Assembly (NCBI RefSeq): GCF_048403405.1
Contig: NZ_CP183129.1
Strand: one strand, 5' to 3'
DNA length: 64,000 nt
Source of the DNA: Escherichia coli
GTDB taxonomy: Bacteria > Pseudomonadota > Gammaproteobacteria > Enterobacterales > Enterobacteriaceae
This document shows positions 41,406-64,000 of the stretch, piece by piece; within the stretch, counting starts at the first letter, position 1, and each line of letters opens with the position of its first letter. Both the position numbers and the translations under genes were made by a program. The notes under the pieces are model-generated. The model was not told the DNA's origin. It ran no database searches and was given only the letters and a program-made list of their open reading frames with translations.

Positions 41406-41621
41406 ATGGCACTCAACTGTCCAACCTGCAAAACCCCTCTCGAACGCAATGGCGAGACTGCCCACTGTGCAACTTGCGACAAAGACTTTACCGTCCAGGC
41501 ACTTTGCCCTGAGTGTCATCAGCCGTTACAAGTGTTAAAAGCTTGTGGTGCTGTGGACTATTTTTGCCAACATGGGCACGGTTTAATATCTAAAAAACGC
41601 GTTGAATTTGTTATTGCTTAA
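41406..41621 (+). CDS. yfgJ: Zinc-ribbon protein YfgJ
   Basis: 71 aa with CPTC...CATC...CPEC...CQHGH. Confidence 0.88.
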   Translation: MALNCPTCKTPLERNGETAHCATCDKDFTVQALCPECHQPLQVLKACGAVDYFCQHGHGLISKKRVEFVIA

Positions 41622-41830
41622 TATCATGTGAATATATTGTTTTATCATTTATATTTAATATGTGAATGGTAAAACAATCTGTTATTAGTGGAATAACTAA
41701 TGTAATTGAGTGAAATCACTAATTTAAATAATTAAGAATATATTTATTCTTTATGACATGCCTTTCTGAATAATCAGGGATACAATATTAAAGCTTATTT
41801 TTGACTGTATCATTGTCACAGGGAAAGTGC
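41622..41830 (+). promoter_or_regulatory. AT-rich upstream region of sinH-like gene (candidate promoter / nucleoid-protein silencing region)
   Basis: About 200 bp with very high A+T, at the island's left junction. Confidence 0.45.
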
Positions 41831-44008
41831 ATGCTGCGATGGAAACGCTGTATTATTCTAACATTTATCTCTGGTGCTGCTTTCGCGGCACCAGAGATAA
41901 ATGTTAAGCAAAACGAATCGTTACCTGATTTAGGTAGCCAGGCAGCACAGCAGGATGAACAAACCAACAAGGGTAAATCGCTGAAAGAGCGCGGAGCCGA
42001 TTACGTCATCAACTCCGCCACGCAAGGGTTTGAAAACTTGACCCCTGAGGCGCTGGAATCTCAGGCCAGAAGCTATCTGCAAAGTCAAATCACCTCAACC
42101 GCACAATCTTATATTGAAGACACACTCTCTCCCTACGGTAAGGTCCGTTCGAACCTCTCCATTGGCCAGGGCGGCGATCTGGATGGCAGTTCCATCGATT
42201 ATTTTGTTCCCTGGTACGATAATCAAACCACTGTTTATTTCAGTCAATTTTCTGCGCAGCGAAAAGAAGATCGTACAATCGGGAATATTGGTCTTGGGGT
42301 AAGACATAATTTTAATGAATGGTTATTGGGTGGAAATATATTTTATGATTATGATTTTACCCGAGGACATCGCCGTTTAGGTTTAGGCGGCGAAGCGTGG
42401 ACTGATTATTTAAAATTCTCTGGCAACTATTATCATCCGCTTTCTGACTGGAAAGACTCTGAAGATTTCGACTTTTATGAAGAACGCCCTGCGCGCGGCT
42501 GGGATATTCGTGCCGAAGCCTGGTTACCTTCTTATCCGCAACTGGGAGGCAAAGTTGTCTTCGAGCAATATTACGGCGATGAAGTCGCCCTTTTTGGTAC
42601 GGATAATTTGGAGAAAGATCCCTACGCGGTAACACTTGGACTGAATTATCAACCGGTGCCATTACTAACCGTTGGGGCGGACTATAAAGCGGGGACCGGA
42701 GATAACAGCGATGTCAGCATTAATGCCACTCTTAATTATCAGTTCGGCGTTCCGCTAAAAGATCAATTGGATAGCGATAAAGTGAAAGCGGCTCACTCGT
42801 TGATGGGCAGTCGTCATGATTTTGTTGAGCGTAATAACTTTATTGTTCTGGAATACAAAGAAAAAGATCCGCTTGATGTCACCCTGTGGTTAAAAGCGGA
42901 TGCCACCAACGAGCACCCTGAGTGCGTCATTAAGGACACTCCCGAAGCGGCCGTCGGGCTGGAAAAATGTAAATGGACCATTAACGCGCTTATCAACCAC
43001 CACTACAAAATTGTCGCTGCGTCATGGCAGGCGAAAAACAATGCTGCCCGCACGCTGGTTATGCCGGTTATCAAAGAGAATACCCTGACAGAGGGTAACA
43101 ATAACCACTGGAACCTGGTGCTGCCCGCCTGGCAGTACAGCTCTGACAAAGCCGAACAAGAAAAACTCAATACCTGGCGAGTACGTCTGGCACTGGAAGA
43201 TGAAAAGGGTAACCGACAGAACTCTGGCGTGGTGGAAATCACCGTTCAGCAGGACCGTAAAATAGAGTTGATTGTTAATAACATCGCGAACGTGCCGGAA
43301 GAGAACAACCACAGCCACGAAGCCAGCGCTCAGGCAGATGGCGTTGATGGTGTGGTGATGGATCTCGATGTAACCGACAGCTTTGGCGATAACACCGACC
43401 GCAATGGCGATGCGCTGCCGGAAGATAACCTCACGCCGCAGCTTTACGACGCGCAGGACAAACGAGTGACGTTAACCAACAAGCCTTGCTCGACCGACAA
43501 CCCCTGCGTTTTTATCGCTAAACAAGATAAAGAAAAGGGCACTGTCACCCTCTCCAGTACCTTACCCGGCACCTATCGCTGGAAAGCAAAAGCTGCGCCC
43601 TACGACGACAGTAACTATGTGGATGTCACTTTCCTCGGGGCAGAAATTGGTGGGCTAAATGCATTTATCTATCGTGTGGGGGCAGCTAAACCCAGCAACC
43701 TGATAGGTAAAGATAAAGAACCGCTGCCGCTCAACAACACTTATCGATTTGTTTTGTGGCGTGACAGCAATAAAGACGGTGTCTTCCAGCAGGTCGAAAA
43801 ACTGACTGACGAAGAGATGGCGCAGTACGACTACAAGTGGGAATTTACCGGCAAGAGCATCAATGGTGAAGTGGGTGCACAGGCGAACACTTCCAATGAG
43901 GACATTGTGATTCCGGCCACTAACCGCGAAGCAGCGCAAACCTATGGCGCACAAGCGGGAGATGGCTTGCAGGGATACGGTTTACGCGTGCTGTATACCA
44001 AAAAATAA
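41831..44008 (+). CDS. sinH: Inverse autotransporter (intimin/invasin family) adhesin, SinH-like
   Basis: Signal peptide MLRWKRCIILTFISGAAFA; inverse-autotransporter beta-barrel-like segment (GNIGLGVRHNF...NIFYDYDFTRGHRRLGLGGEAW); C-terminal passenger; start 41831 preferred over ORF-track 41801. Confidence 0.8.
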   Translation: MLRWKRCIILTFISGAAFAAPEINVKQNESLPDLGSQAAQQDEQTNKGKSLKERGADYVINSATQGFENLTPEALESQARSYLQSQITSTAQSYIEDTLSPYGKVRSNLSIGQGGDLDGSSIDYFVPWYDNQTTVYFSQFSAQRKEDRTIGNIGLGVRHNFNEWLLGGNIFYDYDFTRGHRRLGLGGEAWTDYLKFSGNYYHPLSDWKDSEDFDFYEERPARGWDIRAEAWLPSYPQLGGKVVFEQYYGDEVALFGTDNLEKDPYAVTLGLNYQPVPLLTVGADYKAGTGDNSDVSINATLNYQFGVPLKDQLDSDKVKAAHSLMGSRHDFVERNNFIVLEYKEKDPLDVTLWLKADATNEHPECVIKDTPEAAVGLEKCKWTINALINHHYKIVAASWQAKNNAARTLVMPVIKENTLTEGNNNHWNLVLPAWQYSSDKAEQEKLNTWRVRLALEDEKGNRQNSGVVEITVQQDRKIELIVNNIANVPEENNHSHEASAQADGVDGVVMDLDVTDSFGDNTDRNGDALPEDNLTPQLYDAQDKRVTLTNKPCSTDNPCVFIAKQDKEKGTVTLSSTLPGTYRWKAKAAPYDDSNYVDVTFLGAEIGGLNAFIYRVGAAKPSNLIGKDKEPLPLNNTYRFVLWRDSNKDGVFQQVEKLTDEEMAQYDYKWEFTGKSINGEVGAQANTSNEDIVIPATNREAAQTYGAQAGDGLQGYGLRVLYTKK

Positions 44009-44062
44009 GATTGGCGTAAGGCCAGTCGGCCAGTCGCTGAAGGTTCATTAAGGAGAGCATCA

Positions 44063-45040
44063 ATGAAGCAGGATAAAAGACGCGGTCTGACCCGGATCGC
44101 ATTGGCGCTGGCACTGGCAGGTTATTGTGTGGCACCTGTGGCGCTGGCGGAAGAAAGCGCCTGGGTCGACAGCGGCGAAACCAATATTTTCCAGGGAACC
44201 ATTCCGTGGCTCTATTCGGAAGGGGGAAGCGCTACGACAGATGCCGACCATGTAACGTTGACTTCAGATCTAAAAGGCGCTCGCCCGACAGGTAGTGAAA
44301 CGGACAAGCGTCTTTACTCGGGTGATAAATTAACCGTAAGTTGGGAAATTGGTGATACCGAAGGCGACGTGGATCTTGGGGGATTGGGCGATAACGCAAA
44401 GACTATCGATACTATCCGCTGGATGAGCTACAAGGACGCTCAGGGTAACGATCCAAAAGAGCTGGTAACGAAGGTGACCAGTTACACCCTTACCGATGCC
44501 GACCGTGGTCGTTATATCGGTATTGAAATTACGCCAACCACGCAGACCGGTACGCCAAACGTCGGGAATGCGCTGCATCTTTATGACATTTCCACTGCCA
44601 GCGGCGGCGGAAGCGACAGCGACAACGTTGCGCCAGGGCCGGTGGTTAACCAGAACCTGAAAGTCGCCATCTTTGTTGATGGTACCAGTATCAACCTTAT
44701 CAACGGCAGCACGCCAATCGAACTTGGCAAAACCTACGTGGCCAAACTGTACTCGGATGAGAACAAAAACGGCAAGTTTGATGCGGGTACCGATGCTGAC
44801 GTTACCGCCAATTATGACTTCCGTTGGGTACTTTCTGGCAGCAGCCAGCAGCTCGGCACCTCGGGTGGTATCGTTAACTCAAGCTTCGATAATAACAATC
44901 TGGTCATCCCTGCGACCAACGAAGACGCCAGAACCAACCTTAACGGCCCTGCGCGCGATGGTAAAGAAGCTCTTACCATCCCGACCAACGGCGACGGGGT
45001 ACAGGGGTACAAACTTCACATTATTTACAAACACAAATAA
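44063..45040 (+). CDS. sinI: Secreted protein SinI-like (signal peptide; shares C-terminal domain with SinH-like passenger)
   Basis: 325 aa, signal peptide ending VALA; C-terminal ~95 aa align with SinH-like C-terminus (VIPATN...DG.QGY.L...Y.K). Confidence 0.65.
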   Translation: MKQDKRRGLTRIALALALAGYCVAPVALAEESAWVDSGETNIFQGTIPWLYSEGGSATTDADHVTLTSDLKGARPTGSETDKRLYSGDKLTVSWEIGDTEGDVDLGGLGDNAKTIDTIRWMSYKDAQGNDPKELVTKVTSYTLTDADRGRYIGIEITPTTQTGTPNVGNALHLYDISTASGGGSDSDNVAPGPVVNQNLKVAIFVDGTSINLINGSTPIELGKTYVAKLYSDENKNGKFDAGTDADVTANYDFRWVLSGSSQQLGTSGGIVNSSFDNNNLVIPATNEDARTNLNGPARDGKEALTIPTNGDGVQGYKLHIIYKHK

Positions 45041-45048
45041 CGCGTACT

Positions 45049-45085
45049 CAGCAGCATTCCCGCAAGGGAATGCTGTTTCCGCATA
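45049..45085 (+). terminator. Hairpin/terminator after sinI-like gene
   Basis: cagcattccc-gcaa-gggaatgctg followed by TTTCCGCATATTTT. Confidence 0.5.
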
Positions 45086-45116
45086 TTTTGCTTAATCCCG
45101 GATTAAGCAAAATATG
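45082..45116. promoter_or_regulatory. 35-bp perfect palindrome upstream of giant gene
   Basis: catattttgcttaatcc-c-ggattaagcaaaatatg, 17-bp arms around a single central base, ~45 bp upstream of start codon. Confidence 0.45.
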
Positions 45117-45160
45117 TTGATGCGACAAGCGTCCGTTTAACAACCGGTGGAGTTTCTGTC

Positions 45161-48100
45161 ATGTCCCTGACCCTGAATAAAATCCTTGTGTTATGCGCAT
45201 TGCTGATAAGCGCAATGCTGCCTGGGTGGTCATGGGCAGAATCTGCATGGCAAGACTCTTCAGATACGGTCGGCGAATTTAACGGTACCGTGCCCACCGC
45301 CGACAGTGCCAGCATACCCGTCTACCAGGGCAGTGTCTTTCTGGATCCTGCAAAGACGCATGAGGTAGCGTTTACCGCTAAACCGAGTGAATTCAGCGCG
45401 GATATTAGCGTCTCTAAATTGCTCGTCACCAATCCGCAAGACAGAGAAGGCGATATCATTTCCACCCCACGTTGGGAAAACCAAACGCCACCGACAGTAT
45501 CTTTAGTTTGGGCGGATGCCGCGACGCCGGACACCTTACTGGACCCACAGCCAGTCGCAGATCGCTCGTTTTGCGCTCAGGGACTTGCCGGGCGTTCGCT
45601 GGTCGCCTGGGCGCAGCCTGATCCCCAACAGACCATGCCGCTGTTATATTTACTCACCTCGACGGGCTATCCCTATGAAAGTGTTCTGACGCTCGCCGAT
45701 CAGAAAGTGACGCTGAAGATTGCGCCCGCGCAGGGTGACCTTATTTCCGTCAGCGCCGCGGGCTATGACGAATCCTCCGGTGCGGCGAAAACGACGGTTG
45801 GCGGCAGTATCACGTTAACGGTCACCACCAAAGATTGCGTCGGTAATGTTGTGGGGAATATTCCTTTTGTTATCAAACGCAAAGATGCTGAAAACCGCCA
45901 GGGTGTGGTGAACAATACTGCGCCGGTAAAACTGGGCACGACCGAATTAACCACCACCGCGACGGAATATCGTGGTACTACCGATGCGAATGGTGTTGCC
46001 ACGGTTACGGTCACCCAGGCCAACGGCCCTGGTGTAAAAACGCCGTTGGTCGCGAGCCTTGCGGGTATTGCTCAGGCCAGTGAAACGGCAGTGATCTTTA
46101 CCGTCCTCACCAGCCCGGATGTCCCGCAGGCTACAATGTGGGGTCATATGCCCGATACGCTGAAGGCCCGTGATTACACTTTTAGTCGACCAAAACTGGC
46201 GGCGGAAGTCGATAATGAAGACGGTACGGTTAACGATCACAATGAAACCTGGTCCACCTTTACCTGGAGCGGCGCGGATAAACATTGCGACATTTTGCCC
46301 GGAATGCGTCAGTTCGGTGCGCTGGCGACGGTGGTGCCAACGTCAGTGCAGGATGTGGCTGGTTGGCCGATGCAGGGTAATTTCTACTGGTCATCACTGG
46401 CGGGGATGAGTGGCCAGCACCATGCGGCGGATGTTTCGAACCGCAGCGAAGCGCAAAAACCGGACGATACGACGTTTATTGTGAGCTGTGTCGATAAAGA
46501 AGCGCCCGATGTTGAACCGAAGCTGGTACTGACGCCGGGCAGTTATGATTCGACGATAAAAGCGATGAAAGTAAAGGTGGGGGAAGAGGCTTCTTTACGC
46601 CTGACGATTACCGATAGCAAGAACAACGATCAGCCGCTGGCGTACTACTACTTTTCGCTGCATCTGGATGACGGCGTTAACCGTAAGAATCAAACTGACA
46701 CCGCGTGGCAGGCGAATCCGGTACAAATAGCGGGCGGCAGTAATGTCCATCAGGTTGACGCGCATACCTATGAAGGGATCACTGATGCTAACGGAGAGGC
46801 CTCTCTGACGCTGACCCAGCCAGGCGGTGTGGGGGTGAAAACTCACATCACCGCGAGAATGCGCAGCGATTTTACCGCCTCGGATGAGAAAGACGTTATT
46901 TTTACGGTGATCACCAGCCCTGATTCCGACAAAGCGCGGATGTGGGGACATATGTTGGGCATTATTGAAGCGAATAATATCTTTAAACGCCCACGGCTGG
47001 CGGATGAAACCGACAACGAACTGGGAGCAGTGCGGGAAAATAACGAAGACTGGGCGCTGTTTGATCAGAATAGCAGTATGCAGGCTGAGTGTGGTTTAGG
47101 TCATATTCCGAGCCAAAGCTCATTGCACAGTTTGTTTGCCGCACATCCAGCCAATGTCATCGGCACCGAATATGGCTGGCCAACGTTGCAAAAAGCGTAT
47201 CTTAGTGCGGTGGAAGAGACGTCGCACGCGTCGGTGAACCTGGCCACGGGCAACATCGACACCTATTCCGGCTTTAAGCAAAACTACCTTTCTTGTTCGG
47301 GCAATGAGATGGTCGCCCAGATTGCTGCGACCACCGATCATGATGTTTCCACAAGCAGCAGAGCGCAGGCTAAAGTGGGTGAAACGATTACCATGACGGT
47401 ACGCACCTTTAATGCCTTGAATAATGCGCCCGTGCCGTATACCGCGTTCACCATCACTAAAGATATGGGGAAAAATCGTCAGGGGCAGAGCACGGGTTTC
47501 GATGATCCAACCCGCGGCGCAATCGAGATGAATGGCACGCTCTACGGAACATCGCAACCGTCTTTAGTCTATGCAGGTACTACGGATGCGCAGGGTTTTG
47601 CTACTGTGGAAATTAAGCAACCGCAAGGTGTGGGCTTAGCGACGCCGCTGAATATTGCGCCTGTAAACTCCTATATTCCCAATACTGTTAATTACAATGT
47701 GATTTTCACTACGCTCACCAGTCCGGATGCGGTTGGCGCGCAGATGTGGGGGCATATGGATGAGACGATTACCGTCGATGCATTAACCTTTGCCCGACCC
47801 CGGCTGGCTGCGGAAGTGTCCAGCCCGGACGGCACATTAACGGAAAATAACGAAGTGTGGTCGCGCGTTAGCCAGGCCAACACTTCCAGCACCAGTAAAG
47901 GTGGCTGTGGTGCCAATATGCTCCCACGCCGTTCCCAGCTTAACGCGCTCTATGATGCTAACAGCGGTAACGCCGTTCAAACGGTACACGGTTGGCCAAC
48001 GCAGCGTCAGCCCTACTGGAGCAGTTCGCCCGCGGATCAGGTGCCGCATTACTACACCATAGCCCTCAACGATGGCGCGCGGACCGTTGGCGGTAGCACG

Positions 48101-51100
48101 GCGGTTTATGTCAGTTGCCTGACGACGGCTAACAATCCTGCCAGCAGCATTACGCTGGAAGTGGTGGACCCGGCGCAGTGGAACGCGGCAGCAAATGCGG
48201 CGAAGCTGAAAAAAGGCGAAACGCTACAGGTGAAGGTGACGGTAAAAGATGCTCAGGGCAATCCATTGGGTGATATGCCTTTTACGCTGAAGCGTGGCGA
48301 TGGTTATACCCGATCAAACGAAAAACACATTGCCGGTAGCGGTGATGCGCTGGTTGCGCCGGTTGTGATCAATAGTGGCCTGGCGGATGAAACTTCGCTC
48401 AATGATACCGCCGCAGCATACAGCGCGATGACCGGTAGCGATGGCACTAAAATTCTCACTATTACCCGCCCGGATACCCATGGCACAAAAACGTCGCTGA
48501 CCGCCGCGCTCTATTCAGACACAACGAAAAAAGCGACCCTCGATACCATTTTTACCGTTGTCACCAGCCCAGACAGCAATAAAGCGAAAATGTGGGGGCA
48601 TATGCCGGAAACGGTGACGGCTGCGGATGGAACGGTCTTTAAACGCCCATTATTGTTGAAAGAGTTATCCAGTACGTCGGGTCGAACAGCGATTGCAGAA
48701 GATAATGAGGACTGGGCGCAATTTACCCAAACTCAGGCGACAAGCACATCCTCTAATGGTTGTGGTAGTGAATATGTTCCCTCTCAGGCCGGGCTGGAGT
48801 CATTGTATGAAGCCAACCGCGGCAATGCGATGAAAACGGTTCAGGGCTGGCCCGTCGCCTCAAGTTACCTTACCAGCACGACAGGCAGCAGTAGTCTGGA
48901 ACAGCGTGACTTAAAGGCCGTCAATCTCAGTTCAGGCACCAGTTCGATAATTCCATCGGCCACAAAAGAACTGCTTACCTGCCAGACGACGCCGATCGTC
49001 AAGGCTAGCCAAATCGTTCTTGAGGCTGCGGACCCCACAAAATTTGACAGTACGAATAATGTTGTCAAAGCGAAAAAAGGGGAAGAAGTCGTGGTTCGCG
49101 TGACCACTAAAGATTCGCAGGGTAACCCGGTGGGAAATACCGCGTTTACGCTTAAACGTAACCTTAGCGTCAATCGGGCAAATGCGTCTACAACGGTGAC
49201 AGCAGGCGCGCTCATCGTGACGGATGCCTGGGGTAACACGCAGAGTAATTTTTCCTCAACAACAGCACTGATTTATGGCGTTACCGGCGCAGATGGTACG
49301 ACAACACTTGCACTGAAACAGGACAATACCACGGGTTTAAAAACCGAACTGACCGCCATGCTGGATACAGATAATAACGTAAAATCAATGCTTCCGGTGG
49401 TCTTTACGGTGATAACCAGCCCCGATACCCCTAAAGCAAAATTCTGGGGGCATATGGCCGAAACGATGACCGGTGCTGGCGGGCTTATTTATAAAAGACC
49501 GTTATTGCAAGATGAGCTTTCCGTTACAACCAGTCGAAGCTCTTTTCAGGAAGATGGAGAGAGCTGGTCACTGTTCTCGCCGGACCAGTCGAACAACACA
49601 TCTGTAAATGGTTGCGGTGCAGGATATGTCCCGGTTGAAAGTGAGCTGGAGTCACTGTATGCCGATGAAGGTTACGTGCCAATACATGACGTTACGGGAT
49701 GGCCTGTATCACGCGCCTATATCTCCAGTACGGTTGTTGCCTATTACACTCAAACATTTAATTTTAAAGCGGTTTCGTTAAAAACGGGTGATGGAACGGA
49801 GGTCATGTCAAGCAGTATAGGACTGCTAAGTTGTCGGGCTACCCCAGTGGCGGTGACCAGCCACATTATTGTTGAAGCGAACGATGCGACACAATTTGTC
49901 AAAGTTGACGAAACCCTCAGCGCACTAAAACGGAAAAAAGGTGACGACGCGGTGATTCGCGTGGTGACAAAAGATGCGCAGGGAAATGTCGTACCAAATG
50001 TTCCGTTTATTCTCAAACGTGAAGGATCGACAAATCGCCAGAATGTACAGTTGTCGAACAGAACTATCACTGTAATCAACGCTGCGGGAACGTCGGCAAG
50101 AGTGGATACTCCATCAATCTCCCTTTATGCGGTGACAGGTGCAGACGGGACAGCCACGTTTACGGTAAAGCAGGATGATTCTATAGGCCTGGTAACCAAT
50201 GTGTACGCTCAGGCCTATCAGTCGAGCCTGGAATCCAACAAATTACCCGTGATGTTTACCGTGATAACCAGCCCGGATACCCCCCTGGCAAGTTACTGGG
50301 GGCATATGGCGGAAACGTTCACTACGCGTTCTGGTACTGCCTTCAAACGCCCCTTACTCTCTGCTGAAAGATCGTCGGGCCAGTCGTTTATAGAAGACAA
50401 TGAAGAGTGGGCCGTGTTGAGATCGGCAACAAAGGGGGATATCGATAAAAGCGGGTGCGATGTACATTATCAACCACTGTTAAGCGAACTACAGGCATTG
50501 TACGACGAACACCCAAGTCGTGCGATAAAGACCGATCTGGGTATTCCGGTAAATAGCTACTGGTGGGCTTACGACATGGTGGCATATGCGGGTAACTGGT
50601 ACGATCAATATATTTATCTGTTAAATGGATCAAGTGGAAGAGCGTCTTCAACCACCTCGGCATTAATGCTGTGCCTGGTAAACCCTCATCCAGAGGCGGC
50701 TTCTATTGAAATGACCTCAACGGCGGAGGATGCAACGAAAACGGCCAGCAATGATGGCAGGCCCAGCGCAACAGCGAAGAAGGGAGAGGTTATCCCGATG
50801 ACTGTTACGGTGCGAGATAGCGCAGGCAATCCACTGCCAGGTGCCAGCTTTAACCTTAAACGAGGAACTGCGCTGAACCGCGCTAAAGCTGCGTACGATG
50901 CCTCTGCAGATGATCTTACCATCATACCTGTGGAACCTACTGGGGTAACGTCAATCTTGTATGGGGATGGGACGCAGGCTCTTCTGAAGACAGGGAGCGA
51001 TGGTAAAGCTACGTTTGAGGTCAGCCAGAATAGCAGTTATGGGCTGTCAACGCCGCTCAGCGCAGAACTCATGCGCGATACCTCGAAAAGCGTCACGCTG

Positions 51101-53203
51101 GATGTCATTTTCACGGTGATAACCAGCCCGGATTCGCCAAAAGCGAAATACTGGGGCCATATGCCGGAAACGTTTACCAGTTCGGCAGGCGTGACCTTCA
51201 AGCGCCCATTACTGGCAGCGGAAGCGACTACGGGGAGCTCGGTAAACGGTAATAATGAGACATGGTCATATATATATAGTACTCAAAAAGCGACGGCAGA
51301 TTGTTCGCTGGAATATCAACCGCGCCTCAGCGAATTGCAGGGGTTATATGACGATCACCCAAACGGGGCGTTAACGAAAGATCTGGGGTTGCCGATAGCG
51401 TCAGGAAACTGGTGGATTTATGAATTGCTTAACTCCAATGGTAGCTCCTGGTATTACCAGGTCTTTAACCTAAGTACGGGACGAGCATCATCCGCACTCT
51501 CTCCGGTTGCTCTAATGCTCTGCCTGGCACAGCCTCACTCTAAGCCGTCAAGCGTTACCCTGACTTCAATAGCATTTGATGAGACGAGAACCGCAAGTAA
51601 CGGCGGTACACCTTCGGCATCGGCGAAAAAGGGCGAGACAATCCCGTTAGTCGTGACAGTAAAAGACCAAAATGGCAACCTGCTGAGTGGCGAGAGCGTG
51701 ACGCTTCAGCGGGCACAGGCGAAAAGTCGTTCAGGAATTAGGCCCTCATCGTCGGCAGATGATCTTATTGTAGATGTCATCACACCGACAGCGGTCAGCA
51801 TTCCCTTTACTCAGGATACGGCAAAATGGCTTGGCTTTACCGGCAGTGATGGCACAGTGACGTTCAATGTTACGCAAAACGCCACCACCGGCCTGGCAAC
51901 GCCGTTTACGGTCTCGCTTGCACAAGATCCGCAGATCACGTCAAACCTGGACCTGATATTTACCGTGGTCACCAGCCCTGACTCCCTGGATGCCAACTAC
52001 TGGGGCCATATGCCAGAAACGGTGACAGCGGCAAATGGAACCGTCTTTGAACGACCGAAATTGTGGAAGGAACTGCCATCGACCTCCGGGGTAAATAAAA
52101 CCAATAACAATAATGAGGACTGGCCCTATTTTTCGTCAACCACTAAAGCAAATTCCAGCCTCAGCCCTTGTGAGGAAGCCCGGCAACCGTTGCTCAGCGA
52201 TATGAAGTCACTGTATCAACGTTATCCCAATAACACCCTTACGACGGAAACTGGCTGGTCAGTTTATTATTACTGGTGGGCGCAGGATAAGACTACAGAT
52301 GGTAAAAATCAGTCGCTCAATATGAAAGATGGCACAACGACATTGAATGGTAATGCCGCTTATCAGGCGTGTCTGGTGTCTGCGCGCGCGACGGTTTCCA
52401 GCGTCACACTGACCTCAACAGCGTTTGATGCTGACAGCCAGGCGGCGAAAGTGAAAAAAGGCGAAGCCATGCCCGTTACCGTGACGGTGAAAGACAGCGC
52501 CGGGAATACGGTACCGAATGTGGAATTTACTTTGAAACGTGGCGATGCATCGCCGCGTAACGCTGGGGCGACGTTGTATGGTGATGTGGTGGCGATGGAC
52601 GATCTCATCGTTCAGCCGTTATCTGGTTCGGCTGTTACGCTGAGTGAAAGCGGTAATACCATTAGTGGCATGACAGGCGCGGATGGGACGGCAAGTTTTA
52701 CGCTCCGCCAGGATAATACCCCTGGTTATAAAACGCCACTGACGGTTACTCTGGCTAATTACGCTTCCGCGACAGACACGCTGGACGCTATTTTTACGGT
52801 ACCAACCAGCCCGAATGTTTCCTCGGCGCACTTTTGGGGACATATGGCAGACACTGTAGTGGTGAATGGTAAATCGCTACATCGACCGTTGTTAACGACA
52901 GAATTGCCGTCCGGGGCTAATCCCGTATCCTCACCGATTATTAACTACGAAAACTGGGCTTCTGCACATATCATTGATGCCAGTAAATGGGATATTGCAA
53001 GGCAGTGTGGCAGCATAGAAAATGCACCGACATACAATGAATTAGAGTTGTTGCACACTGTTTTTAATTCACTGGGATGGCCGTCTTCACCAAGTTTTCC
53101 TTATTTGTCCTCTCAACAGTGTGGGATGGACGAAGGCACTGGAGCACAGGATTGTAGTATCACGCTAATGAATAAACCGGGTCTGGTGACCTGCTTCCAG
53201 TAA
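45161..53203 (+). CDS. Giant secreted repetitive protein, RatA/RatB-like (Ig-like/adhesin-type tandem modules)
   Basis: 2680-aa uninterrupted ORF, signal peptide ...LPGWSWA; about nine ~270-aa tandem units each with (I/V)FTV(I/V)TSPD...WGHM, a Cys-containing segment and a KKGE...V.V.VKD..GN motif. Confidence 0.8.
45760..53203 (+). repeat. Intragenic tandem repeat array (~9 units of ~805-853 bp) within giant gene
   Basis: TSPD...WGHM motif recurs near 46092, 46897, 47701, 48548, 49400, 50251, 51104, 51956, 52790 (manual count). Confidence 0.75.
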
Positions 53204-58105: not shown

Positions 58106-59356
58106 GTGCTTACCGATACAAAATTAAAAAACCTCAAGCCGCAGGACAAACTGTACAAGGTCTCCGATCGTGACGGGCTGTATGTAGCTGTGCTTACGTC
58201 AGGCACGGTCTCGTTTCGCTATGACTACCGTATCAACGGTCGCCGCGAAACACTGGTAATCGGGCAGTATGGGCGTGACGGTATCAGCCTGGCAGAAGCG
58301 CGAGAAGAACTGATTGCTGCAAAGAAGCTGCTTAAAGCAGGCCAGTCACCGGCTGCGGCTAAACGTGACGGTATCAAAAAGATTCGTGGTGCCGAGACGT
58401 TTGCGGTACATACCGACAGTTATATGAAACATGTCATCCTGGCTGACAGTACCCGCGCAATGAAGCAGGCGGTGATCGACCGTGACATACTTCCGGTTCT
58501 TGGCAACAAAATGATGACTGAAATTACCACATCGATGGTTCGTGATTTGTGTGACCGGATTGTCGAACGCGGTGGTCGGGCAACAGCAGTGCAGGCCAGG
58601 GAGATCATCAGCAGCGTATACCGTCACGCCAATGACCGTGGTCATGGTTTGTTTAATCCTGCGGCTGACATTAAACCTTCGTCTATCGCCATATTTAAAC
58701 CACGAGAGCGAACACTGACGCCAGAAGAAATTGGCCTGTTCTTCCGCACGCTGGATGCCATTGGTGCTATGGGCACTATGAAAATGGCTTTAAAGCTGGT
58801 GCTTATCACTATGGTTCGTAAAGGCGAATTCACCAATGCAACGTGGGACGAAATAGATTTTAAAAAATGGACATGGACAATTCCTTCAGACCGCATGAAG
58901 GGAAGCCGGGCGCATGTTATTTACCTGCCTAAACAGGCACAGGATATATTGGTCGGGTTGCAGATGTGCGCTGGTGGAAGTGAATATCTGGTTCCTGGTC
59001 GTTACAACTTCCGGAAGCCATTATCTAATGCCGCGCTGAACTCTCTGATCGACAGAACGGTGAAAATAATAAATGAAGATGGTGAGCATATTCAGGACTT
59101 CACCGTACATGATATGCGCCGTACAGCCAGTACGTTGTTGCATGAGGCTGGTTATCCTTCAGACTGGATTGAAAAGGCTCTGGCACATGAGCAGAAAGGT
59201 GTGCGCGCCGTATATAACAAAGCGGAATACGCCAGACAGCGCGCCTACATGTTGCAGCAGTGGGCCGATATGATTGATTCCTGGATTGACGGGGAGCATA
59301 CGGATCTGATTCCGTTCTCCCCGTCGAAGTTTGAGAAGTGGATGGCGGGAGAATAA
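58106..59356 (+). CDS. Tyrosine recombinase, P4-type phage integrase
   Basis: GTG start; N-terminus LTDTKLKNLKPQDKLYKVSDRDGLYVAV...FRYDYRINGRRE typical of P4-family integrase arm-binding domain; C-terminal catalytic region with HDMRRT and Y near end. Confidence 0.9.
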   Translation: MLTDTKLKNLKPQDKLYKVSDRDGLYVAVLTSGTVSFRYDYRINGRRETLVIGQYGRDGISLAEAREELIAAKKLLKAGQSPAAAKRDGIKKIRGAETFAVHTDSYMKHVILADSTRAMKQAVIDRDILPVLGNKMMTEITTSMVRDLCDRIVERGGRATAVQAREIISSVYRHANDRGHGLFNPAADIKPSSIAIFKPRERTLTPEEIGLFFRTLDAIGAMGTMKMALKLVLITMVRKGEFTNATWDEIDFKKWTWTIPSDRMKGSRAHVIYLPKQAQDILVGLQMCAGGSEYLVPGRYNFRKPLSNAALNSLIDRTVKIINEDGEHIQDFTVHDMRRTASTLLHEAGYPSDWIEKALAHEQKGVRAVYNKAEYARQRAYMLQQWADMIDSWIDGEHTDLIPFSPSKFEKWMAGE

Positions 59357-59359
59357 CGT

Positions 59360-59554
59360 TTAATAGTTCTGCTGATTTTCTTCCATCTCGGCTTCTGCTG
59401 CCAGTGATTCAATTTTGTCTGCGAATATTGCTGACAGCGTTGCAAATTCAGCATCAGTGACAGCGGGAATTGGAACAAACCTGATCCCGCTGTGTGCAAG
59501 CATGTTTGCAGTTTCAAGGCATTTCCTTAAATCTGCTGGTGATGCCCTGTTCAT
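59360..59554 (-). CDS. Hypothetical small phage protein (64 aa)
   Basis: ATG 59554 overlaps methyltransferase stop (ATGA coupling); acidic C-terminus; no recognised family. Confidence 0.4.
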   Translation of the reverse strand: MNRASPADLRKCLETANMLAHSGIRFVPIPAVTDAEFATLSAIFADKIESLAAEAEMEENQQNY

Positions 59555-60201
59555 GCTGCACGCTCCCGCCCCTGGTTGTCTGTTGGTGACAGCGGAGCAT
59601 TGCTGAATGCATTTGTTAATTCGGCAATATCCAACGCGTATCCAGGGTGTAGTTGCACTGCCGGGTCTTCGCACTGATTACCCCAAACATCGAAGCCATG
59701 AGACGTCTGGCGGGCGAACAGTTCAATGCGAGAAACATCGCCTAACAATTGCACAAGTTTTTCACGAACAATATCTGGTTTTCTTGAATGCTCAAGCCGC
59801 GGTGCGGTAAATGACTGAACGATCCCTGCATTAATGCGCGTAGGTAGTTTTCCCTTTACTGCAAACAGGCAATCTTCACTATTGGCGCGAGTCATGTGTC
59901 CCATACCCATAACCAGTTTATCTGGTTGTCGACTACCACATTTTATCCACGTGAAGCCCTTCATGGTCATCAGACGGAATCCCCAGACTTCAACAACTTT
60001 TAGTGCTTCGAGTGGTTGTGTTGGCACCCACCACATGGCCAACAGACAGTTTTCATCGGCCAAATCCCACACAGGAAGGCGGCAGATATCCAGCACACTC
60101 ATAACCGGGTATTTAAAACCGGCACCGCGATTACCATCTGCGGCTTTGTCCCGGTATACCCAGGGTGGATCTGCATAGATTAGTGTGTATTTCTTAGTCA
60201 T
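59551..60201 (-). CDS. MT-A70 family DNA N6-adenine methyltransferase (phage-type)
   Basis: MTKKYTLIYADPPWVY... with catalytic DPPW motif; start at ATG 60201 preferred (GGGGTGG RBS), ORF-track GTG 60213 possible. Confidence 0.8.
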   Translation of the reverse strand: MTKKYTLIYADPPWVYRDKAADGNRGAGFKYPVMSVLDICRLPVWDLADENCLLAMWWVPTQPLEALKVVEVWGFRLMTMKGFTWIKCGSRQPDKLVMGMGHMTRANSEDCLFAVKGKLPTRINAGIVQSFTAPRLEHSRKPDIVREKLVQLLGDVSRIELFARQTSHGFDVWGNQCEDPAVQLHPGYALDIAELTNAFSNAPLSPTDNQGRERAA

Positions 60202-60493
60202 AAACCACCCCACAACATCCTATGCCGCTATAGTCGCCACGGCGAAGGCCGTTACCTTTTGTGATACATTGGTCCCTGCGAACCGCGATCCTTGCACGCT
60301 CAACATCACCAGAAGCAACATCCATACACTGAAGCCAAAGGTGGGCGGCAATGCGGAACTGCCCTTTTTTCTCTCTTTCAATCGCGCGTTTTTCGATCTC
60401 TATCGCCGCAGGAGTAACGGCAACAACCTTTGAAGGGCTGCGCATTGAAACCTTGTTCATGTGATATTTTTCAAGTCGGCTTAACTTTCTCAC
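60194..60493 (-). CDS. Hypothetical phage protein (start uncertain)
   Basis: ORF overlapping methylase start by 8 bp; basic/charged; no recognised motif. Confidence 0.35.
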   Translation of the reverse strand: MRKLSRLEKYHMNKVSMRSPSKVVAVTPAAIEIEKRAIEREKKGQFRIAAHLWLQCMDVASGDVERARIAVRRDQCITKGNGLRRGDYSGIGCCGVVYD

Positions 60494-60602
60494 TTAATCC
60501 AACCCTCTCTGAAAATTAATGCCAGCAGATAAAGCCATGCTGAAACAGAGGCCAGGAATAAGTACCATCCTGACCATTTGCTCCAGTGCCTTAGCAGCAC
60601 AC

Positions 60603-60851
60603 TCATTCCGCGTTGCTCACGGGACGATATACACGTTGCTGAACAGGAGGTTTTTTACCCTGGAACTCTGCCGGGCTTGCTGCATGACGTTCATCAAGCC
60701 AACGCTCAACTTCATCACGGTTCCATGCGCAGCGTTTATCGGTGATATACCAGCGTTTAGGAAATTCCCCTGCGCGCTCCATACGGTCGATAGTGCTCCA
60801 TGACAGTGGAACCACCGCCAGGAGTTCCTTCTTACCTAATGCACCTTTCAT
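60603..60851 (-). CDS. AlpA-family DNA-binding protein (putative excisionase / phage transcriptional regulator)
   Basis: 82 aa; LSWSTIDRMERAGEFPKRWYITDKRCAWNRDEVERWL fits the AlpA/Vis winged-helix pattern. Confidence 0.65.
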   Translation of the reverse strand: MKGALGKKELLAVVPLSWSTIDRMERAGEFPKRWYITDKRCAWNRDEVERWLDERHAASPAEFQGKKPPVQQRVYRPVSNAE

Positions 60852-60900
60852 AAATACCTCTCTTGGTTGCAGTGCGGCGCGCGTGGCGCCGCGGTGGTGG

Positions 60901-61782
60901 TTACATAGATGTTTCGTTTAATTCTTCCCGACGAACGCTGTAAACGTCGGTGGCTTTTGCCAGCAGTTCGTCATCATCTGAAAGTTTTTGTGCAATGTAT
61001 TTGTAAGCCTTATCCAGTTCGGAGACAGTGCTGTAATTCATCGCTGCGCTGGTAAAGGCCATCAGCATTTCTTCTGGATCACGGCTATCCGCTTTACGCG
61101 TTTGCTCATCAGGCTTTTTCACTGGTTTAGCGTTGATCAGACTGTTCATTCCCGCAGCAGTAGTTGTTTGCGGAGTAATGTCTCGCTCAACGCGCGGTGC
61201 CGTTTCCTGTAATTCGTCAGGGGTGTAAACACCGAGAAGTACATCAGGAGCGTGCAGGCGAGCCCATCGTTTCGTGCAAAGATAGGCAAGTTGCTGGCGC
61301 GGATCCTGTTCCCACAATGGAGAGTTACGCACTCCGGCTTGCGCCATACTGATGGTAAGCTCACGGGGTTCTGCTTCTCCTTTAAGAACTGCTGACACAG
61401 TTACCGTCAGATTCGGTGATTTATCTGTTTTGCCGTTAACATTCGACCAGTCACCGCTCCAGCGATAATTCAGGCGTGTCGCTAGCAGGCTGGAAGAGGA
61501 TACGACCGCGTTTACCAACTGTGCTTCGTAGCCTAACGTTCCGTTTACCACATGCGTTTTCTGCGCCACGGCGAAAGGGTTCATTCCCCACTGTGCCGCC
61601 TGCATGGTCACCGCCAGGCAATCGGCAGGTTTGCCTTCAAGATGTTTCGGCACAGTCGCTTTGCTTTGTGACATCAACTCCGCGAAACGCACCAGTTGAT
61701 TCATGCCCTCGGGGCTGAAGATTGCCGCAGCAGTGCCTACAGTTGCGCCTGGTTGTGATGTGATTGCGATATCATTGCTCAT
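60901..61782 (-). CDS. Putative RecT/Bet-like single-strand annealing protein
   Basis: 293 aa immediately downstream of and overlapping an exonuclease gene; region ...AAQWGMNPFAVAQKTHVVNGTLGYE... resembles RecT-family core; assignment by context and weak motif. Confidence 0.5.
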   Translation of the reverse strand: MSNDIAITSQPGATVGTAAAIFSPEGMNQLVRFAELMSQSKATVPKHLEGKPADCLAVTMQAAQWGMNPFAVAQKTHVVNGTLGYEAQLVNAVVSSSSLLATRLNYRWSGDWSNVNGKTDKSPNLTVTVSAVLKGEAEPRELTISMAQAGVRNSPLWEQDPRQQLAYLCTKRWARLHAPDVLLGVYTPDELQETAPRVERDITPQTTTAAGMNSLINAKPVKKPDEQTRKADSRDPEEMLMAFTSAAMNYSTVSELDKAYKYIAQKLSDDDELLAKATDVYSVRREELNETSM

Positions 61783-62600
61783 ACGTACATATCCTGTTTA
61801 CGTGCCCAGTCAGGGCGTTTAATAATTTCCACTCCGCCCCATTCATCGTTGATGCGGCATTCGTGATAGGTATTCAGATCCCGGCGGAACAGAGCGTGCC
61901 CGGCATCGACATCTGGCGCATCCAGCTCGAACACGCGTACCGGATACCGACCACAATCAATGCTTTCGCTCACGGCAAGAAAGAAAAAACCATGCGGCTG
62001 ACCAGTAACCCTCATTGCGCCTTCGCGGTACATTGCGTCCTGCACGTGGTAGCGGAATTCCTCGATGTGGCGTGCAAAACGGTCCATATCTGCAACCTTT
62101 TTCACGTCGACGATCACGTTGTGCTCGTTCAGCCATTTGTCTGGACGAATTCGGCACAACTCACCCGTCTCTTCATCATTCCAGTACATTGATGCTTCGC
62201 AGTAACCAGGTGCTTCCAGCATCCAGCGTGCCGCCGGGTGAGCCATTGCGCTATCACGCATCAGCTCCAGTTTCCGCCACTGCTCGGCATCAAGTACCGT
62301 AATCCCCATATCCGCCACATCACGAAGAAATGCCTCTTCGTCAGCTTTACCTTGTTTCGTCCGACGATCGAATTTCGGTGAAACAATGAAGCGTTTGTCG
62401 AACTCTCCAGGCTCCAGAAGCAGACAGTGCAATGCGGTTCCCATATCCAGTGCAGACTTTTTCTCTTCGTCTTCTGGTGCTGCCTGAACCCATTTAAGAA
62501 GCGCCGGATTCTTGGCAACCATGTCTAGTTGCGACTTACTCACTCCGTCACCGGCGTGGTAGTCTTCGTTGCTGATGTCGAAATAAATTCCCGGTTTCAT
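61779..62600 (-). CDS. PD-(D/E)XK-type exonuclease (exodeoxyribonuclease VIII / RecE-like C-terminal domain)
   Basis: 273 aa; N-terminal GIYFDISNEDYHAGDGVSKSQL and IVDVKK block fit this nuclease fold; paired with annealing protein. Confidence 0.65.
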   Translation of the reverse strand: MKPGIYFDISNEDYHAGDGVSKSQLDMVAKNPALLKWVQAAPEDEEKKSALDMGTALHCLLLEPGEFDKRFIVSPKFDRRTKQGKADEEAFLRDVADMGITVLDAEQWRKLELMRDSAMAHPAARWMLEAPGYCEASMYWNDEETGELCRIRPDKWLNEHNVIVDVKKVADMDRFARHIEEFRYHVQDAMYREGAMRVTGQPHGFFFLAVSESIDCGRYPVRVFELDAPDVDAGHALFRRDLNTYHECRINDEWGGVEIIKRPDWARKQDMYV

Positions 62601-62895
62601 GCCGCGTCCCTCTGTCCATCAAGCTGATCCGCCAGATCCCAGCGGGCGATAATTGCCATTGCCTCTCGCCGGTAGGCATCCATCAGTTCTTCGAACTCAG
62701 GGCTGTCTTTAGCAGCCTCCAGTACTTCCTGACGAACGCCTTTGCCTGTTACAACGTCGAAAGTTGAGGACAGTTGATGAAGTCGGATGCTCTCAATCAG
62801 TTCAACTTGTCGGTCATATAGCTGTTCTGACAGGCGGTAGTCCTTGTCGAATGCCAGCATGATTTTTTGAAGATTTTTCTGCTGATTAACGTTCA
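62597..62895 (-). CDS. Hypothetical phage early protein
   Basis: ~99 aa from ATG 62895 (MNVNQQKNL...); stop overlaps exonuclease start; unknown function. Confidence 0.4.
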
Positions 62896-62897
62896 TT

Positions 62898-63051
62898 ATC
62901 AGCCCTCCCATATCTCGTTATCGTTGGCCACATCGCGAGCTTCTTTGCTGACGAAAGCCCACTTAATGCCTTCCTGTAAGGTGCGGAACTTCCAGCTCAT
63001 GAATCCGCATGCAGTAACGCAGTACCAACCGTTGATGATTTTCCACTGCAT
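62898..63051 (-). CDS. Small ORF (50 aa), first gene of leftward early operon (tentative)
   Basis: MQWKIINGWYCVTACGFMSWKFRTLQEGIKWAFVSKEARDVANDNEIWEG; not in the supplied ORF track (<60 aa), found by manual translation. Confidence 0.3.
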
Positions 63052-63057
63052 AACTTG

Positions 63058-63147
63058 TTACCTCGGTCTGTTACCGTTGAGGTAATGATTATGCGTATCT
63101 GGTTTGATGTCAATAGATATGAGTTAAAAAAATTACCCAACAGGTAA
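63058..63147. promoter_or_regulatory. Early-operon promoter/operator region with inverted repeats
   Basis: TTACCTC-N14-GAGGTAA (63058-63085) and palindrome TTACCCAACAGGTAA (63133-63147), which recurs at 63845-63859. Confidence 0.5.
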
Positions 63148-63156
63148 TCTAACAGG

Positions 63157-63184
63157 CAATAAAAAAGCCGCCATGAGGCGGCTT
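63157..63184 (-). terminator. Rho-independent terminator downstream of repressor gene
   Basis: aagccgcc-atga-ggcggctt hairpin with U-tract on minus strand. Confidence 0.65.
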
Positions 63185-63204
63185 ACTTGCTGAAAACTAT
63201 AGTT

Positions 63205-63789
63205 TTATTGTTTGTTTTTTTCGTTCTGGTTGATGACAAATTCAATGTAACTTTCGATCTTTGCTTTCTCGGTTTCGGGTAACAATGCGTAGCGCGAGCG
63301 GTCATAGTTGATAGTCGCAGGGTCGTGCGGGTGAATCAGTAATTCATAGCCATGACGCCCGAATGCGGATGCAACATTCTCCAGGGTGGAAATGGAAACG
63401 CTGACCTCATTGTTTAACAGGCGGCTGATTGTCACCTGGGCGACGCCGGATGCGCGGTGTAGTTTTCCCTGCGTTGAAAGGTCGCGGCTTTCGCTCATCC
63501 AGCGTTCCAGGTTGTGAGCAGCCAGCTGACCTATATCACTCGGGCCGACAGGCTGAAAACCTTCCTGAGAAAGCGAGCGATCGATATCAAGCCAGTTACG
63601 GGGTTTATTGGCGGCAGCTTCAATTTTTCGCGCAACCTGGTCGCCGATAACCTTCTTGCCAAGAGCCCAGCGGTTTACCAGATTTGCCTGAGTTCCAAGT
63701 TTTTCTGCCATCCGCGTCTGAACACCATTGAATTCACGGTCGATCAAGTCGTTGAGATTTTGCCTGCGGACGTCCTGGATACTTTTCAT
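63205..63789 (-). CDS. Phage repressor-like protein with two HTH (XRE/CI-type) domains
   Basis: 194 aa; two helix-turn-helix-like segments (QTRMAEKLGTQANLVNRWALG and LHRASGVAQVTISRLLNNEVSVSISTL); flanked by operator-like palindromes. Confidence 0.6.
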   Translation of the reverse strand: MKSIQDVRRQNLNDLIDREFNGVQTRMAEKLGTQANLVNRWALGKKVIGDQVARKIEAAANKPRNWLDIDRSLSQEGFQPVGPSDIGQLAAHNLERWMSESRDLSTQGKLHRASGVAQVTISRLLNNEVSVSISTLENVASAFGRHGYELLIHPHDPATINYDRSRYALLPETEKAKIESYIEFVINQNEKNKQ

Positions 63790-63943
63790 TTTCTGGAAAA
63801 TCGCCTCATATATGAATCAGTAGATGATTCAATTTAAAGCAATATTACCCAACAGGTAAATGCACCTCATAGGTAACTATCCTTGATTTTTGTTACCTTA
63901 TGGGTGAATATTTATTATCTGAAATAAATATCAGGCAATAGCT
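63790..63943. promoter_or_regulatory. Divergent promoter/operator region (repressor vs rightward gene)
   Basis: Contains TTACCCAACAGGTAA (63845-63859) and GGTAAC...GTTACC inverted repeats. Confidence 0.5.
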
Positions 63944-64000
63944 ATGAGCGATAACGGACATTTCGATTTCAAAAAGCACTGGCTTGCACTTACTCCGGAC
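63944..64000 (+). CDS. Rightward phage gene, 5' fragment only (truncated by window end)
   Basis: ATG 63944 (MSDNGHFDFKKHWLALTPD...) open to window edge; divergent from repressor. Confidence 0.35.
   Translation, partial: MSDNGHFDFKKHWLALTPD

Follow-up and report, generated by a model that had tools for sequence, protein, structure and literature searches.

Do three adjacent genes for an outer-membrane adhesin, a small immunoglobulin (Ig)-like protein and a giant lectin-like protein encode one secreted system, or three independent adhesins? The sinH–sinI–ratA locus raises this question in a 64,000-nucleotide stretch of Escherichia coli DNA (RefSeq assembly GCF_048403405.1, contig NZ_CP183129.1), referred to here as the window. 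A preliminary description, centred on sinI, had proposed that SinI shares its C-terminal domain with SinH and a motif behind its signal peptide with the giant protein, and that the three products belong to one system. We find both similarities to be real. On balance we think it fairly probable that sinH, sinI and ratA form one multi-protein surface adhesin system around a type Ve inverse autotransporter (IAT), SinH, in which the N-terminal peptide of SinI and RatA serves as the recognition element for SinH-dependent export and/or attachment.

The locus is the known E. coli sinH–sinI–ratA adhesin operon, on the chromosome. Window positions 41500–45300 are 100% identical to complete E. coli chromosomes, and RefSeq annotates the identical genomes with sinH (intimin-like inverse autotransporter), a 'SinI family autotransporter-associated protein' and an 'adhesion domain-containing protein', the trio being flanked by der and xseA. 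SinH-type proteins have been proposed as translocators of SinI and Rat-like partners (Heinz et al. 2016, PMC4943183); that article also describes SinI as lacking a barrel but resembling the Ig domains of SinH, with Kingsley 2003 as its source. Goh et al. 2019 (PMC6714894) make the same statements on SinI and SinH for E. coli IatB (SinH). Thus neither the idea of one secretion system nor the similarity of the SinI and SinH tails, real as it is, is new. What we add is modest: an N-terminal tag that defines the partners of IATs ending in a domain here called X, and the recognition of SinI as a hybrid of two module types.

The N-terminal peptide of SinI and RatA

The features of sinI and ratA used in the argument are as follows.

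44063–45040, + strand: sinI, SinI family autotransporter-associated protein, 325 residues (NCBIfam partner_SinI, RefSeq annotation)
44063–44149, + strand: SinI signal peptide, residues 1–29, predicted cleavage ALA|EE (-3/-1 rule applied to the sequence)
44150–44212, + strand: SinI N-terminal partner motif, residues 30–50, EESAWVDSGETNIFQGTIPWL (conservation in 23 homologues)
44255–44587, + strand: SinI Ig-like domain 1, residues ~65–175 (seven predicted strands; weak match to Pfam IG_AIR9)
44645–45037, + strand: SinI C-terminal Ig-like domain X, residues ~195–325
45161–53203, + strand: ratA-like giant adhesin gene, 2680 residues (NCBIfam RatA-like model)
45161–45238, + strand: RatA signal peptide, residues 1–26, predicted cleavage SWA|ES (-3/-1 rule applied to the sequence)
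45239–45298, + strand: RatA N-terminal partner motif, residues 27–46 (matched at 8.7e-4 by a profile of SinI N-peptides only)
45239–45799, + strand: RatA N-module, residues 27–213 (BLAST chain to SinI; no Pfam domain)

Both proteins are clear members of their families. SinI matches NCBIfam partner_SinI (NF040711) over its full length, with residues 7–322 covered at 336.6 bits (cut-off 165), and its gene lies in the position typical of the family, 54 nucleotides downstream of a SinH-type IAT gene. A Pfam search of SinI gave nothing significant, and sequence searches of the PDB with a SinI profile gave no match even at an expect value (E) of 10. The RatA-like protein matches the NCBIfam RatA-like model (NF011844) at equivalog level (5382 bits, cut-off 3870). 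A Pfam scan of its first 1200 residues found four BIg21 (PF05688) and four InvE_AD (PF05689) domains, alternating from residue 214 on, and no Pfam domain before that residue.

Directly after the signal peptides, which were predicted by eye with the -3/-1 rule, SinI and RatA carry the motif that the preliminary description had pointed out. It is longer than first noted, extending over about 20 residues as ESAW.DS..T...F.GT[IV]P with a one-residue indel between the two proteins. Direct comparison of the two N-termini by BLASTP is marginal (E = 0.023, signal peptides included), and the evidence that establishes the motif comes from the families. W34, T40, G45, P48 and W49 are invariant among the 23 SinI homologues, and distant SinI-like proteins (20–35% identity) retain the core [ST]-x-x-[ILVF]-x-G-x-x-P. 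The RatA pattern recurs in Rat-like proteins of 16 other loci and, in the Rat-like N-termini of several other genera, stands right after the predicted signal-peptide cleavage; the homologue search with the RatA N-terminus returned fragments of at most 333 residues, still usable for N-termini. A strict form of the core pattern has three occurrences among the 128,000 six-frame residues of the window, and SinI holds one.

A hidden Markov model (HMM) built from SinI-family N-peptides alone was searched against 947 six-frame open reading frames (ORFs) from the window and all collected loci. The SinI proteins ranked first, followed by the N-termini of Rat proteins and of shorter 'mini-Rat' proteins, matched at the correct position. 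The best Rat-type match reached 2.5e-7 and residues 28–45 of the window RatA 8.7e-4, the first unrelated ORF standing at 0.05. Together with the conservation within the families, this bears out a post-signal-peptide motif common to SinI and the RatA-like protein. In AlphaFold models the motif of SinI has a predicted local distance difference test (pLDDT) value of ~75–80 whether domain 1 is present or not, and in the full-length model it is followed by a variable, low-confidence linker (residues 48–63). We found no mention of the motif in the literature covered; Heinz et al. 2016 (PMC4943183) term the Rat N-terminal region "highly divergent".

The similarity may extend beyond the motif. The mini-Rat proteins of Buttiauxella and Lelliottia link SinI and Rat. 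They combine the motif with an Ig-like domain, a Big_2-like region and a C-type-lectin-like end. A chain of BLAST matches runs from the RatA N-terminus to the third protein of a Buttiauxella locus (L020, 6e-13), on to the third protein of locus L021 (1e-17) and from there to SinI (1e-11 to 3e-18). Given these intermediates, the whole N-module of ~170 residues, that is the motif and domain 1 in SinI, is probably homologous in SinI and Rat proteins. When the N-modules of SinI and Rat were compared directly, profile to profile and without the motif, the result lacked significance (probability 7%), and only a T.TG.P element was aligned. Domain 1 of SinI is also the unit repeated up to 27 times in giant proteins.

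The signal peptide of SinI shows a feature of its own. Its h-region residues A19-G20-Y21-C22 (window 44117–44128) are invariant or nearly so in the SinI family, and 'L-A-G-[YF]' is kept in several SinI-like proteins that are only ~20–35% identical; such conservation in the core of a signal peptide is unusual. The A-G-Y-C sequence is not a lipobox, because Y stands between G and C.

Domain X and the constancy of the locus

The corresponding features of sinH are these.

41831–44008, + strand: sinH, intimin-like inverse autotransporter, 725 residues from the RefSeq ATG (NCBIfam inverse_SinH, Pfam IAT_beta, RefSeq annotation)
42017–42838, + strand: SinH beta-barrel translocation domain, residues 63–336 (Pfam PF11924, IAT_beta, 2e-108; solved invasin and intimin barrels)
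43634–44005, + strand: SinH C-terminal Ig-like domain X, residues ~602–725 (BLASTP to the SinI C-terminus; SinI profile match)

SinH matches the equivalog model inverse_SinH (NF033423) at 1489 bits (cut-off 999) and has both parts that characterise SinH-type proteins, an N-terminal IAT barrel and a C-terminal passenger. Its barrel matches the solved structures of invasin (4E1T, 1.7e-73) and intimin (4E1S, 7e-65). RefSeq places the start at the ATG at 41831; a longer reading of the ORF runs to a TTG at 41801.

The C-terminal similarity between SinH and SinI is unambiguous. BLASTP aligns SinH 633–735 (numbered from the TTG) with SinI 211–325 at 36% identity and, as a single comparison, E = 4e-13; the NCBIfam SinI profile matches SinH 619–722 at 4.3e-21, and the SinH profile matches SinI 208–325 at 2.7e-11. 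The homologous span covers the last ~105 residues of SinH and the last ~115 of SinI. The TY, N..G.F, VIPATN and DG.QGY positions singled out in the preliminary description are invariant or nearly so in the 23 SinI homologues (T224, Y225, V281, P283, T285, N286 and D311–G315), and every peptide quoted there lies where it was said to lie. The domain ends in DG.QG[YF].L.[IV].Y and is found solely on IATs and SinI-like proteins. Both it and domain 1 of SinI are ordinary Ig-like sandwiches, and AlphaFold predicts X alone as a complete, confident sandwich with pLDDT above 90. X could conceivably serve for surface anchoring or homotypic interaction, the example offered in the preliminary description. 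By contrast, the motif heads every barrel-less partner seen and is present on no IAT. Given that X occurs only on IATs and SinI-like proteins and the motif on all partners, SinI is a hybrid whose head is of the Rat type and whose tail is of the SinH type.

Within X lies a conserved acidic loop, D-x-[ND]-x-[ND]-G-x-[FYW]-D, which reads SDENKNGKFDAGTD in SinI (residues ~230–243, window 44750–44791); its counterpart in SinH is RDSNKDGVFQ (residues ~643–656 in ATG numbering). By its sequence the loop looks like a calcium-binding loop of the DxDxDG type.

The three genes lie adjacent on one strand, separated by gaps of 54 nucleotides (sinH–sinI) and 120 nucleotides (sinI–ratA) in which no terminator-like site was seen. 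A review (PMC12525524) states that sinH and sinI are co-transcribed. The survey of co-occurrence that had been suggested as a check was run with one genome per species. It yielded 20 loci with a SinI relative, from Escherichia, Citrobacter, Pseudocitrobacter, Superficieibacter, Leminorella, Lelliottia and Buttiauxella, and in each of the 20 the IAT gene is followed first by sinI and then by a gene for a Rat-like or mini-Rat protein. Among 5426 complete E. coli genomes, sinH is found in 1740 (at least 80% coverage), sinI in 1690 and the 5' end of ratA in 1689–1739, so that about a third carry the operon; the genes are always chromosomal and sinI is always single copy. Adjacency, shared strand, lack of a terminator, constant order and near-equal genome counts together uphold the view of the three genes as one unit.

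The arrangement persists in distant loci, where an X-like domain closes each IAT and the motif opens each downstream partner. Locus L024 combines an IAT ending in an X-like domain, a protein with the motif at its head and X at its tail (an N..X protein), and a Big_1/Invasin_D3 protein headed by the motif. L022 has the same three-part pattern, its third protein carrying the N-terminal element only. An IAT is followed by two N..X proteins in L029, and by one each in L028 and L030. In Leminorella, both tandem Rat paralogues retain the motif.

Among Escherichia lineages SinH is 84–91% identical in the barrel and 71–81% in the X tip, its most variable part. Its two inner Ig-like passenger domains (window 42851–43633, residues 341–600) are the best-conserved part of the protein, at 93–95% identity. 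Such conservation is unusual for a surface-exposed adhesin stalk and could reflect a conserved interaction surface.

X is also of practical interest. SinH is a candidate vaccine antigen against extraintestinal pathogenic E. coli, and the protective antigen SinH-3 comprises SinH residues 602–724 (Xing et al. 2023, PMC9937491). This stretch is the X domain, so the protective fragment is exactly the domain duplicated in SinI. If SinI is secreted or exposed at the surface, its copy could be a decoy or a second target, a point to consider in vaccine work.

Candidate roles of the N-terminal peptide

These data allow us to propose how the three products could work together. SinH would reside in the outer membrane by a 12-strand-type beta-barrel and present three Ig-like passenger domains, with X at the tip of the passenger and a duplicate of it at the C-terminus of SinI. 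SinI and RatA, with predicted Sec signal peptides and no barrel, would be SinH-dependent partners, as ZirS is of ZirT in Salmonella. Their N-terminal peptide would be the first part to leave the Sec channel, like the TPS domain in two-partner secretion (TPS), and through it the partners would be recognised for SinH-dependent export and/or attachment. Lectin-like adhesion domains, which in intimin and invasin belong to the barrel polypeptide itself, would come in repeated form from RatA. We infer this role because the peptide is on all partners and on no IAT, opens the mature protein, is better conserved than the sequence behind it, and because the locus holds no other exporter: by annotation, SinH is the only outer-membrane gene between der and xseA, with no other outer-membrane component, usher or chaperone gene. 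Consistent with such a dependence, secretion of ZirS is strictly ZirT-dependent, in E. coli too (Gal-Mor et al. 2008, PMC2270342). The narrower idea that the peptide is the substrate signal of IAT partner secretion, a counterpart of the TPS domain that is read by the SinH barrel or passenger or docks on X to build a SinH–SinI–RatA fibre, is a tentative one, which we regard as possible rather than probable.

The closest known system is ZirT/ZirS/ZirU of Salmonella, in which an IAT barrel protein precedes Sec-dependent, barrel-less Ig-like proteins that resemble the C-terminal Ig domains of the IAT. SinH, SinI and RatA have this architecture, with signal peptides read from sequence only, and Heinz et al. 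2016 (PMC4943183) hold that ZirS and ZirU relate to ZirT as SinI does to SinH. The SinH system differs in its extra giant lectin-repeat protein and in its N-terminal motif, for which ZirU seems, from profile coordinates, to have no room; IAT dependence is known for ZirS and ZirT, and is predicted for the SinH system. Domain 1 of SinI matches the NCBIfam ZirU_fam model at 5e-7 (residues 69–210 aligned), but with 30.1 bits against a cut-off of 100 SinI is not a member of the ZirU family and the similarity is one of domains. The Salmonella CS54 genes sinH (sivH), sinI (sivI), ratA and ratB and the E. coli IatB/SinH ('ila') locus are orthologues of the genes described here, in the same order beside xseA. 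A single Rat gene is present at this E. coli locus, compared with ratA, ratB and shdA in Salmonella.

Other systems resemble the locus in part. Intimin and invasin, likewise type Ve, have the same barrel and an Ig-like stalk, and the lectin-like InvE_AD domains of RatA alternate with Big-type domains; unlike them, the SinH system has stalk and lectin-like domains on separate polypeptides, and SinH ends in X rather than in a C-type lectin-like domain. As in two-partner secretion (type Vb, FhaC/FHA), the transporter is separate from the exoprotein, and the exoprotein has a conserved element at its N-terminus after the signal peptide. However, the transporter is not of the Omp85/TpsB type and has no POTRA domain, and the motif has ~20 residues in place of a beta-helix domain of ~250. 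The TPS domain (Pfam Haemagg_act) was not matched in SinI or in RatA 1–1200, so these proteins do not class as TpsA exoproteins. A short N-peptide before an Ig-like domain also recalls the N-terminal extension of chaperone–usher pilins, and those of FimF and FimG have alternating hydrophobic residues around a conserved glycine. In contrast to pilins, the locus has no usher or chaperone gene, the predicted Ig-like domains are complete and no strand insertion is predicted, so SinI and RatA do not class as pilins.

Several points weigh against the proposed export or attachment role. Biofilm formation by IatB (SinH) does not require the downstream protein (Goh et al. 2019, PMC6714894), and SinH therefore has an activity of its own. 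The SinH linker inside the barrel should block the pore, a point left unsettled in Heinz et al. 2016 (PMC4943183). Position 18 of the ZirU profile aligns with SinI residue 69, too near the start to accommodate the motif. It may thus be missing from ZirU and may not extend to every IAT partner. Gal-Mor et al. 2008 (PMC2270342) describe ZirS as lacking a TPS-like conserved N-terminal module. We also modelled with AlphaFold a construct of the SinI motif, a 21-residue GS linker and X, with domain 1 left out (42 sequences; the output does not include contacts). Its first ten motif residues have a pLDDT of 80, the G-T-x-P core ~50–60 and the linker ~41; the motif values equal those of the full-length SinI model, and only two-residue bridges form, as they also would in a free hairpin.

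In a second reading the peptide docks head to tail: that of each partner binds X of the preceding protein, so that SinH-X holds SinI and SinI-X holds RatA, perhaps as an added beta-strand like the pilin N-terminal extension. SinI would then be an adapter that lengthens the stalk of SinH and carries the lectin-rich RatA at the end of it. The distribution of modules agrees with this, X being on IATs and SinI-like proteins only and the motif on all partners, and the gene order would be the assembly order. Proteins at the end of the series (Rat, mini-Rat and the Big_1/Invasin_D3 protein of L024) have the motif and no X, and N..X units can be repeated, as in L029. The motif hydrophobics alternate around the invariant glycine (I-x-G-x-V-x-W), a pattern that resembles the donor strands of FimG and FimF; ZirS and ZirU reportedly bind one another and the ZirT passenger; and in the construct without domain 1 the first motif residues are well above the GS linker in pLDDT. 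Yet no long inserted strand appears in the AlphaFold model, in which confidence within the motif is lowest at the G-T-x-P core, and X is predicted to be complete and confident by itself. Motif-bearing proteins also outnumber X domains in Leminorella, and likewise in Salmonella with RatA and RatB, and docking leaves unexplained how a protein of 2680 residues crosses the outer membrane. We consider docking of this kind quite unlikely.

Shared ancestry could also account for the similarities, the operon having grown by duplication and domain shuffling into three independent adhesins, with the peptide as the first element of a homologous Ig-like N-domain. A common first segment is indeed expected if the N-module as a whole is homologous in SinI and Rat, as it seems to be; both SinI domains are of an ordinary fold, and SinH is active in biofilm assays without SinI. 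However, the motif is far better conserved than the part downstream, its invariant residues persisting where the following domains are no longer detectably similar, and in SinI it precedes a variable, low-confidence linker; strict synteny in distant taxa and the absence of another exporter argue against independence. Ancestry as the whole explanation is in our judgement unlikely. Recent gene conversion between sinI and ratA at their 5' ends, as the source of the ESAW.DS..T identity in this strain lineage, is very improbable indeed. Motif variants do match by lineage: both proteins have SAW.DS..T...F.GT in the clade of the window and G.WQ.....T..I.GT in most other genera, and pairs from the same locus score higher (50.6) than pairs across loci (39.7), a value reached by 0 of 20,000 permutations. 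This signal vanishes within the large clade (p = 0.09) and thus reflects some two or three events rather than proof of co-evolution of the SinI and Rat motifs; co-variation of the SinI and SinH X domains is weak (p = 0.02). Moreover, both shared serines are encoded by different codon families (AGC in sinI, TCT in ratA), which indicates that the motif is kept by selection on the protein and not by recent copying, and on this codon usage gene conversion was rejected. The DNA, besides, has no convincing alignment, and a core retained across bacterial orders is beyond what conversion could explain.

If the export or attachment role holds, a type Ve protein would give other proteins a platform, reached through a tag that is both defined and portable. 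Heinz et al. 2016 (PMC4943183) treat the passage of the barrel-less partners of IATs through the outer membrane as an open problem, and a short invariant N-terminal tag on all partners in SinH-type systems offers an easily mutated handle on recognition and a simple rule for mining genomes for partners.

Alleles and neighbouring features

Within E. coli, sinI and the 5' end of ratA fall into two sharp allele classes, with 927 genomes at 95% nucleotide identity or more to the window, ~750–810 at 60–80% and almost nothing between. The 927 genomes have the window-type allele of all three genes, and the allele classes co-segregate. Between classes, sinI and ratA are 60–80% identical in nucleotides and sinH 80–90%; in protein, the window sinI–ratA allele is ~45–50% identical to the other common Escherichia allele and to Salmonella. 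Judged from these identities, the partner genes evolve or are exchanged as a fast-diverging cassette.

Three sequences related to the operon deserve mention. In E. coli E69 (L018, 7358–10315) sinH is split into two ORFs ~800 bp apart, which may be due to an insertion, and sinI and the Rat-like gene are intact. The top Foldseek match of the artificial motif–linker–X construct is the E. coli protein Aec3 (AlphaFold database Q7X2C0, 188 residues), 76% identical and aligned along its entire length; Aec3 may be a SinI variant without domain 1, either short by nature or truncated. A 3.1-kb contig (L002) binned with a Collinsella sp. metagenome-assembled genome encodes SinI and RatA each 98% identical to those of the window; it almost certainly comes from E. 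coli and was put into the actinobacterial bin by error.

Between der and sinH, an ORF of 71 residues (41406–41621), named zinc ribbon domain protein in RefSeq, has a weak, sub-threshold match to the 'dual CXXC motif small (seleno)protein' model (24 bits; cut-off 40). Farther downstream, after guaA, the window (58106–64000) contains the following.

58106–59356, + strand: integrase
61779–62600, - strand: match to the C-terminal part of exodeoxyribonuclease VIII/RecE
63205–63789, - strand: weak repressor-like ORF

Strain MS 69-1, identical at the sinH locus, has yfgI-yfgH-pdeF-ppx in place of the integrase region. This difference in gene content indicates that an integrated prophage-like element starts near 58.1 kb.

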